IMG/VR virus record: IMGVR_UViG_2778261056_000003
Reading direction: 5' to 3' (one strand)
Source: a virus
Lineage: Duplodnaviria; Heunggongvirae; Uroviricota; Caudoviricetes
DNA: 4,457 nt
This document shows positions 805-1,578 of the stretch, one piece after another. How positions within the stretch are numbered: the stretch's first letter is position 1; every line of letters begins with the position of its first letter. A program made the position numbers and the translations under genes. The notes under the pieces were generated by a model, which saw only the letters and a list, made by a program, of their open reading frames with translations, made no database searches and was not told the DNA's origin.

Positions 805-1509
805 ATGGAAAACAAAGATATTCGCAAATCGAATCTGGCGTTTTTGCTAGATGAGCATAAAAAAATCGCGGGTAACACTAATGCAAGCTTTGCCGATAAG
901 CTTGGGGTTAGCCCTTCTCAACTCACGCAAGTCTCCGGTGAAAAAAGCACTCGAAACATAGGGGATAAACTAGCAAGAAAATTTGAAGCCGCACTTGGGT
1001 TACCTAATGGGTGGCTTGATTTGGTACATGATGTAACACCAATTGCATCATGCTCAGATTCTTTAACTTTTGTCGGTCAGGTAAGAAAAGGGTTAGTGCG
1101 CGTGGTTGGTGAGGCAATTCTTGGTGTTGATGGTGCCATCGAGATGACCGAAGAGCGCGATGGGTGGCTCAAAATTTATAGCGATGATCCAGATGCCTTT
1201 GGCCTTCGTGTGAAAGGAGACAGCATGTGGCCTAGAATAAAATCAGGAGAATATGTACTCATTGAGCCTAACACCAAAGTATTCCCGGGTGATGAGGTGT
1301 TTGTCAGAACCGTTGAAGGACACAACATGATTAAGGTTCTTGGCTATGACAGAGATGGAGAATACCAATTTACAAGCATCAACCAAGACCACAGGCCAAT
1401 AACGTTGCCTTATCATCAAGTAGCAAAGGTGGAGTATGTGGCTGGTATTCTGAAGCAATCTCGCCATCTGGATGACATCGAGGCAAGGGAGTGGCTGAAA
1501 AGTTCGTGA
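805..1509 (+). CDS. cI: CI-type prophage repressor (N-terminal HTH, C-terminal S24 LexA-like peptidase domain)
   Basis: 234-aa ORF. HTH-like segment FADKLGVSPSQLTQVSGEKS. GDSMWP motif with Ser140 and Lys177 (IKVL), 37 residues apart as in LexA. Divergent from the cro-like gene across an operator-rich region. Confidence 0.92.
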   Translation: MENKDIRKSNLAFLLDEHKKIAGNTNASFADKLGVSPSQLTQVSGEKSTRNIGDKLARKFEAALGLPNGWLDLVHDVTPIASCSDSLTFVGQVRKGLVRVVGEAILGVDGAIEMTEERDGWLKIYSDDPDAFGLRVKGDSMWPRIKSGEYVLIEPNTKVFPGDEVFVRTVEGHNMIKVLGYDRDGEYQFTSINQDHRPITLPYHQVAKVEYVAGILKQSRHLDDIEAREWLKSS

Positions 1510-1578
1510 CTTCATCGTCCCATAGCTGATAGCCAGTGGCCTGAAGAGACGTTTGGATGATTTTAAGGAAATATCTTC

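Follow-up and report, generated by a model that had tools for sequence, protein, structure and literature searches.

Relics of two repressor gene ends at the left border of the cI-N accessory slot in a lambdoid immunity region

Conserved boundary (linker) sequences have been described at module junctions of lambdoid phages (Susskind and Botstein 1978; Clark et al. 2001; both as cited in PMC3029335). In this model, a short conserved sequence lies between unrelated alternative modules, and homologous recombination reassorts the modules; at most mosaic boundaries such sequences are not findable (PMC3029335). Here we describe a sequence of this kind in a stretch of 4,457 nucleotides (nt) from a virus of the Caudoviricetes (IMG/VR record IMGVR_UViG_2778261056_000003), hereafter called the window, which represents a lambdoid immunity region in leftward orientation (pRM/pL). 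The element in question (positions 1510-1560) lies between the stop codon of the resident repressor gene cI and a cassette of accessory genes. It resembles the described boundary sequences in its position between alternative modules, but it differs from them in having an identifiable origin, as a relic of gene ends, and in being built of stacked layers.

Three other described systems are relevant for comparison. The lambda and 434 cI genes share their 3' end, at the left edge of the immunity substitution, and as in the window two repressor specificities share the ...QWPEETFG codons and the sequence downstream; in L026 and L072, for example, the 434-type open reading frames (ORFs) end in the shared tail and are followed by the lambda rexA leader. 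In lambda and 434, however, the shared segment is translated as the repressor C-terminus, whereas in the window it is untranslated and stands after the stop codon of an unrelated domain. The second system is the accessory or defence slot between cI and N, which is filled by rexAB in lambda, bstA in BTP1, HigBA in H-19B-type phages, and a HicAB-chaperone cassette in mEp506. The window cassette (1562-2382) occupies exactly this slot but belongs to no recognisable family, and our finding concerns the left border of the slot rather than its content. Integron cassette arrays with their attC sites are similar in having a promoter-proximal slot and unrelated cassettes separated by a short shared sequence, as in the DUF3024 example below. 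In contrast to attC, the relic has no structured imperfect palindrome, and no recombinase is present among the window ORFs (neighbouring loci were not systematically searched). Exchange at the relic is best explained by general homologous recombination, with the integron serving as an analogy only.

Downstream of the cI stop codon (TGA 1507-1509), bases 1510-1560 read CTT CAT CGT CCC ATA GCT GAT AGC CAG TGG CCT GAA GAG ACG TTT GGA TGA, that is, 16 further residues and a stop in the cI frame, as stated in an earlier note on this DNA. The lambda cI 3' end reads gtt atc gct agt CAG TGG CCT GAA GAG ACG TTT GGc tga. The lambda CI terminus QWPEETFG-stop, as given in that note, is therefore correct, and positions 1534-1556 of the window are identical to lambda at 23/23 nt. 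An unbiased sample of lambda-type cI genes was also compared, and with its most frequent allele the identity covers 30/30 nt at 1531-1560, including the terminal GGA TGA. The 26-mer AGCCAGTGGCCTGAAGAGACGTTTGG has a single occurrence in the window, and 200 dinucleotide shuffles of the window gave 0 matches to it even at 3 mismatches. The segment 1531-1560 (relic J1) is a relic of the 3' end of a lambda/434-type cI gene, encoding SQWPEETFG plus stop and untranslated here. A possible Chi site in GCTGGTAA was rejected, as it is not the Chi octamer.

An exact search with a 20-mer starting at TGG returned at least 120 viral contigs, and in about two thirds of the contigs listed the motif is the true C-terminus of a long ORF of lambda or 434 type. 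By a protein-based search, the lambda-type C-terminal domain is present in at least 592 contigs. The 20-mer requirement leaves out shorter relics by design, so the apparent minimum relic length is an ascertainment artefact; in addition, many of the contigs sampled are near-clonal Shiga-toxin phages. Within the class of repressors with the H-19B/933W-type C-terminal domain (class A), to which the window belongs, J1 is present in 96/97 sequences. It is decayed in L164, where EE is changed to KK and the relic stop is lost, and the codon TGG is changed to TGA within the relic in L125 and L150. The only class A sequence without J1 is L187, which keeps the inner remnant and breaks directly after GGTAA, at the end of the second relic (J2) described below.

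The window cI is a typical member of its class. It shares 96.8-99.0% nt identity with the cI genes of H-19B and mEp506, the cI, cro, cII and N genes of the window are 97-99% identical to those of phages H-19B, BP-4795 and mEp506, and a prophage of E. coli ECONIH5 is 100% identical to the window over 700-2700. The C-terminal domain of cI is an S24 peptidase (Pfam Peptidase_S24, E = 3.8e-16), and the H-19B and 933W repressors are known to have this divergent C-terminal domain in common (PMC3202840). The resident tail ...KQSRHLDDIEAREWLKSS, with its stop at TGA 1507-1509, differs from that of lambda CI, in agreement with the earlier note. In the Salmonella P22-like phages SI8 and GE_vB_TR, homologous domains with 93% and 58% amino acid identity end in ...IEAREWLRNN at the same residue as the window cI and have their own TAA at the same position. 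The ...IEAREWLKSS / ...EWLRNN tail, together with a stop codon of its own, is thus the natural ending of this family of C-terminal domains.

These comparisons bear on the suggestion that TGA 1507 arose by a recent nonsense mutation or was misread in sequencing, the true repressor being 17 residues longer and ending in ...QWPEETFG. The relic is indeed in frame with the window cI and has no internal stop. However, a search pattern spanning the cI stop, with the stop left free as NNN, returned 93 IMG/VR contigs, and a TGA-containing pattern returned the identical set. Altogether, TGA is found at this position in 97/97 class A sequences under the free pattern, and the same cI end is annotated in more than 130 phage records. 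The Salmonella homologues stop at the same residue with a different codon, and positions 1515-1532 come from another gene in another frame. We therefore give this explanation practically no chance: TGA 1507-1509 is a genuine stop, J1 lies outside the resident repressor ORF, and the suspicion of a truncated or mis-sequenced cI is removed for this window.

The bases between the cI stop and J1 form a second layer. Positions 1515-1532 (J2) read TCG TCC CAT AGC TGA TAG, which translates as S S H S stop stop; with respect to cI, this is the +2 frame. The window allele at 1515-1531, TCGTCCCATAGCTGATA, is identical at 15/17 positions to the lambda sequence after cI, TCGGCGCATAGCTGATA, and the H-19B allele TCGTCACATAGCTGGTAACCAG matches the 3' ends of the class B (...FWSSHSW*) repressor genes of L030 and L061, TCGTCTCATAGTTGGTAACCAG, at 20/22 positions and in register. 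The I-A-D part of the downstream frame (1522-1530) is better assigned to this second repressor tail than to lambda I-A-S; reading I-A-D-S as lambda I-A-S with a one-codon insertion was rejected, since the ungapped match to the second tail fits better. Segment 1515-1532 is evidently an out-of-frame remnant of a different repressor tail of the ...FWSSHSW* type, and the preceding CTTCA (1510-1514) may, with some uncertainty, represent a degraded continuation of it, with TTC as the Phe codon of ...FWSS. The earlier note had placed the lambda-like relic immediately after the cI stop; it does follow the stop, but about 18 nt of the second tail lie between.

The reciprocal arrangement is seen in lambda (L001, NC_001416). 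Right after its cI stop, at 37188-37224 on the minus strand, lambda has 37 nt, ATCGGCAAGGTGTTCTGGTCGGCGCATAGCTGATAAC, that read IGKVFWSAHS-stop-stop and are identical at 29/37 positions to the 3' end of the intact ...FWSSHSW* repressor gene of L030 and L061. The lambda cI-rexA spacer evidently begins with a relic of a ...FWSSHSW*-type tail, and in other phages at least four different cassettes diverge directly after this FWSAHS relic. Both orders of stacking occur: in L061 the true ...FWSSHSW* tail is followed by a lambda-type relic and then by a second ...FWSAHSW relic. In L305, an intact repressor ending in ...RVIGRVFWSSHSW* is followed by the Salmonella allele of the lambda-type relic and by an orthologue of the first ORF of the window cassette (ORF1). 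In blastn, the similarity of L305 to the window begins at 1515 and continues collinearly from there, while the sequences upstream are unrelated. This orthologue, with about 80% identity to ORF1, stands behind a different repressor.

The lambda-type relic is not restricted to class A. The J1 motif also follows the stop codons of repressors ending in ...IIGRVFWSSHSW, ...IIGRLFWYSVLL and ...FVFWYSVLRYRR, and of those ending in ...ALIHESIAYNKL and ...IGSMPQTYRKHG. Repressors ending in ...TMVEHRIYRRKR show two junction variants, both of which retain a longer relic of 434 type. The tails found upstream of J1 comprise eight non-lambda types and two to three lambda/434 types, and we estimate at least five independent relic origins. 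Relative to the resident repressor, the relic is in frames 0, 1 and 2 in 4, 2 and 2 of 8 classes, respectively. Because these classes occupy all three frames, the in-frame position of J1 behind the window cI appears incidental.

The distribution of frames also argues against programmed read-through of a leaky UGA-C, which would yield a minor repressor isoform with a functional lambda-like tail, for instance for oligomerisation. Several observations are in keeping with read-through. UGA followed by C is the weakest termination context in E. coli, the relic is in frame and open in most class A sequences, and the relic variants CCT to CCA, GAG to GAA, and CAG to CAA are synonymous in that frame. 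However, the CCA and CAA variants also occur in true cI genes, from which they could be imported by recombination, whereas GAG to GAA was not seen there. The extension is not conserved as a protein, with H/P, H/Y and GN/DS substitutions among relatives, and it is interrupted by TGA in L125 and L150 and altered to KK, with loss of the relic stop, in L164. Its first half, moreover, is the out-of-frame remnant of another gene. We consider read-through very improbable.

In Salmonella P22-like phages the architecture is the same as in E. coli, and both true ends and relics carry QWPDEIFG. The true tail there reads ...VVASQWPDEIFG-stop, differing from the E. coli allele at 5 of about 27 positions, and the relics behind class-A-like and ...FWSSHSW*-like repressors carry the Salmonella allele. 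This agreement of the relics with the allele of their own population could result from repeated origin or from recombination with true tails that homogenised them, and it argues against a single ancient inert scar.

To see how sharp the boundary is, we used a set of 46 unique lambda-type cI haplotypes. Over the final 372 nt of cI, the entropy per site is 0.0-0.27 bits; it is 0.5 bits in the 12 nt closest to the end (where the stop codon and the third position of the Gly codon vary), and 1.7-1.9 bits from the first base behind the stop onward. In the window, blastn similarity to H-19B, mEp506 and 933W-type phages extends through cI, ends at 1556-1561, and resumes at 2382-2385 with the t_imm hairpin, which has 97% identity with lambda 35789-35826. 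The earlier note took the relic to mark a mosaic junction, with the immunity gene on one side and the variable cassette on the other, which agrees with this break and with the many repressor types and cassettes that the relic joins. An 'empty slot', with no cassette behind the cI stop or relic, was observed in L028, L083, L123, L038, L031 and L087, where a terminator hairpin, GGTCGCA...TGCGGCC with a T-run, stands directly after the motif stop.

Comparison of 144 unique contexts identified 55 different downstream starts, 16 of which occur behind more than one repressor type. For example, the lambda rexA leader follows repressors of the lambda, 434, H-19B and ...FWSSHSW* types. Variants in the third position of the Gly codon and in the stop codon are associated with the cassette rather than with the repressor. 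Lambda and L156, which has an H-19B-type domain followed by the relic, share 1454 nt downstream (rexAB) with 0 mismatches, while on the left their similarity stops 4 nt upstream of TGG. The HK97-like L047 and L064 share 1356 nt with 1 mismatch, with similarity stopping 1 nt upstream of TGG, and L070 and L078 share 1418 nt with 5 mismatches. Several more such pairs exist, and the pairwise switch points fall 1-5 nt upstream of TGG. The relic thus has alternative unrelated modules on both sides, and similarity switches at the element itself, as is characteristic of a boundary sequence. A phage that kept its own repressor and gained such a cassette would have to undergo a crossover within the 23-30 nt relic.

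A more passive origin has to be weighed against this, in which the relic is the neutral leftover of one old illegitimate event and the cassettes arrived by independent illegitimate insertions at the stop codon. Illegitimate recombination followed by selection is the standard account of most phage mosaic joints (PMC3029335), and selection against damaged cI alone would focus joints at the stop codon. However, unrelated repressors are followed by the same cassettes, with up to 100% identity over more than 1.3 kb and with agreement in the Gly-codon and stop variant, and similarity switches in the relic. Illegitimate joins that arose independently would not yield the same junction repeatedly. The tail allele found in the relics is also that of the phage population around them, E. 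coli or Salmonella. In view of these data, we regard the passive scar as unlikely.

Additional motif copies were observed at two kinds of loci. In L004 (Stx2 phage 86, 933W-type), an ORF of the DUF3024 family lies between a full copy (2027-2052) and a partial copy (about 2392-2411). The partial copy, GAAGAGACGTTTGGATGA, is 371 nt from the full one. L008, L040 and L277 show the same, and the motif-flanked DUF3024 ORF occurs in 933W-type and some lambda-type phages. This arrangement looks like tandem-stacked cassettes, each with its own boundary copy. In L049 (7546-7652) and at the equivalent position in L095, two motif copies 87 nt apart surround a mini-ORF of about 22 codons, whose stop is inside the second copy. 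Its hydrophobic product, MREYLIVGVVTLLSVVAIVLMVA, could be a small membrane peptide or toxin.

The persistence of the motif might instead reflect a cis-acting function of its core of about 25 nt, such as a processing or stability site of the pRM mRNA, a signal for cassette expression, or a DNA element like aba. This explanation would account for the retention of the relic after at least 5-8 independent acquisitions of a repressor type, with the left edges clustered at AGC-CAG-TGG, and for the extra copies between stacked cassettes, and it has a precedent in the aba anti-BstA site just downstream of cI in phage BTP1 (PMC8585504). On the other side, the RNA fold predicted for the relic scores no better than those of shuffled sequences (z = 0.49), Rfam gave no relevant match at E <= 1, and a scan for promoter-like and terminator-like sites was negative at the relic. 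In true cI genes, conservation of the last 26 nt does not exceed that of the remaining C-terminal domain, the Salmonella allele shows 5 differences in about 27 positions, and relics that are decayed (L164) or missing (L187) exist. The downstream cassettes are unrelated to each other, which makes a common expression signal unlikely. A retained cis element therefore appears improbable.

In our opinion, segment 1510-1560 is quite probably a non-coding, two-layer recombination scar that provides about 26-30 nt of homology for the exchange of cI-N cassettes. The sequence comparisons show the identity of the relics, their layering, the sharp boundary, and identical cassettes behind different repressor types with the switch in the relic. 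The order of events, and the action of homologous recombination (of RecA or Red/RecET type) on such short homology, are what we infer from them. In the proposed scenario, a lambda-type cI would first have stood in front of the accessory slot. A ...FWSSHSW* repressor would then have displaced it down to its last codons, and an H-19B/933W-type C-terminal domain would in turn have displaced the ...FWSSHSW* repressor down to its own last codons. The earlier note had similarly proposed that an ancestral lambda-like terminus was left untranslated when the 3' part of the repressor was replaced, and this proposal is supported. At present, the scar would serve as the left-hand boundary of the slot for accessory genes. 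It would give a phage with a foreign repressor 26-30 nt of identity (about 46 nt with both layers) to the abundant lambda-type cI 3' end. Homologous recombination at the scar, combined with a second crossover in t_imm, pL or N, could then swap cassettes or immunity modules between heteroimmune phages.

Several points weigh against this explanation. The minimal efficient processing segment in E. coli is about 23-27 bp, so that a homology of 23-30 nt barely suffices for efficient homologous recombination. A single founding event may underlie several of the ...FW classes, which would bring the number of independent relic origins nearer to 5-6 than to 8-10. The left edges of independent relics cluster within AGC-CAG-TGG (in a search that required the 20-mer from TGG), and this clustering might hint at a further constraint. 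Finally, the pattern could in part result from repeated illegitimate joins filtered by selection.

A broader proposal, which we put forward only tentatively, is that the relics of repressor tails together serve as a docking system across the whole phage population. Interchangeable boundary sequences, at least the lambda-type tail and the ...FWSSHSW*-type tail, would stack in either order, lambda included, and recur between tandem cassettes; the promoter-proximal cI-N slot would be an integron-like but recombinase-independent exchange site, and the relics would persist through the access they give to a common pool of defence and toxin-antitoxin cassettes. If so, deletion of the 30 nt should largely isolate a Shiga-toxin phage from the cassette pool.

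The boundary-sequence model of lambdoid mosaicism is already known, and in this respect the locus is a clear but unsurprising example; it also adds to what is known of the cI 3' end common to lambda and 434. Its value lies in being a base-resolved and well-replicated case of a model that is usually hard to document. The homology is traceable to dead gene ends, the history is legible as layers, and recent exchanges, such as the unchanged lambda rexAB behind an H-19B-type repressor, are pinned to about 25 nt. What may be new is the finding that dead repressor tails, stacked on one another, make up the boundary sequence behind repressors of the H-19B/933W type and others; the reciprocal relic of lambda and the mapping of many recent cassette exchanges to the relic may be new as well. 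Our search of the accessible literature on immunity-region mosaicism, the H-19B and 933W repressors, boundary sequences, imm434 boundaries and post-cI remnants yielded general context but no description of the relic, which may nevertheless have been mentioned before; the QWPEETFG peptide gave no papers. In Shiga-toxin and other lambdoid prophages, this junction governs the choice of the defence or toxin-antitoxin cassette that follows the repressor, and it helps to explain the spread of cassettes among heteroimmune phages. In practical terms, the relic is a simple annotation marker for the left border of the slot.

Table 1. Coordinates of the features of the window
Feature	Position	Strand	Basis
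cII	20-319	-	
cro	458-691	-	
Resident repressor gene cI, 234 amino acids, H-19B/BP-4795/mEp506 immunity type	805-1509	+	ORF list
Five bases CTTCA between cI stop and first relic	1510-1514	+	blastn similarity to L305 begins at 1515
Relic J2, last codons of a ...VFWSSHSW*-type repressor	1515-1532	+	Matches to lambda, class B ends and L305
Relic J1, last 9 codons and stop of a lambda/434-type cI; left border of accessory slot	1531-1560	+	
Cassette leader, ribosome-binding site AAGGAAA at 1565-1571	1562-1578	+	First sequence not common to other H-19B-type phages
Cassette ORF1, 146 amino acids, function unknown	1579-2019	+	ORF list
Cassette ORF2, 118 amino acids, function unknown; C-terminal hydrophobic segment; 4-nt overlap with ORF1	2016-2372	+	ORF list
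t_imm-type intrinsic terminator, right border of slot	2383-2413 (2383-2404 for the terminator as scanned)	+	Terminator scan
pL-like promoter	near 2604-2632		
N	2977-3360		

The coordinates of all features are collected in Table 1. The two cassette ORFs (1579-2372) have no match in Pfam or PADLOC; ORF1 was weakly assigned to a PHROG family of unknown function, and ORF2 to PHROG families of unknown function. The cassette was found in 2 of 5426 complete E. coli genomes and in two viral contigs, one of them L305. Our searches of the phage collection gave no match beyond the terminator and those of genome_contigs no exact match. The pair is a candidate for an uncharacterised exclusion or defence system. 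The sole other complete E. coli genome with the cassette is that of strain C 236-04A (NZ_CP109924.1, 1519723-1523058), in which a transposase of IS2 (IS3 family) interrupts the matching region. A 15/16 direct repeat, TAA[C/G]AATCTACACAAC, is present near the cassette ends (1598-1613 and 2370-2385), its second copy abutting the t_imm hairpin. We dropped it as a candidate for the cassette ends, since about 0.1 such pairs are expected by chance by our own estimate and it is probably coincidental.

Two further repeats were noted in the window. A 14-nt repeat, ATTTATCAT[A/T]TTGC, is located in the cI-cro spacer (753-766) and beside the pL-like promoter (2588-2601), and it probably represents half-sites shared by the OR and OL operators. 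A 29-nt direct repeat with 93% identity, TT[G/A]TTTT[G/C]GCAGCAAACCACTTATTTGAG, occupies 3614-3642 and 3935-3963. Both copies are in intergenic spacers of the early-left operon, each directly upstream of a small ORF. H-19B has short matches to this motif, and the repeat may be another boundary-type sequence.

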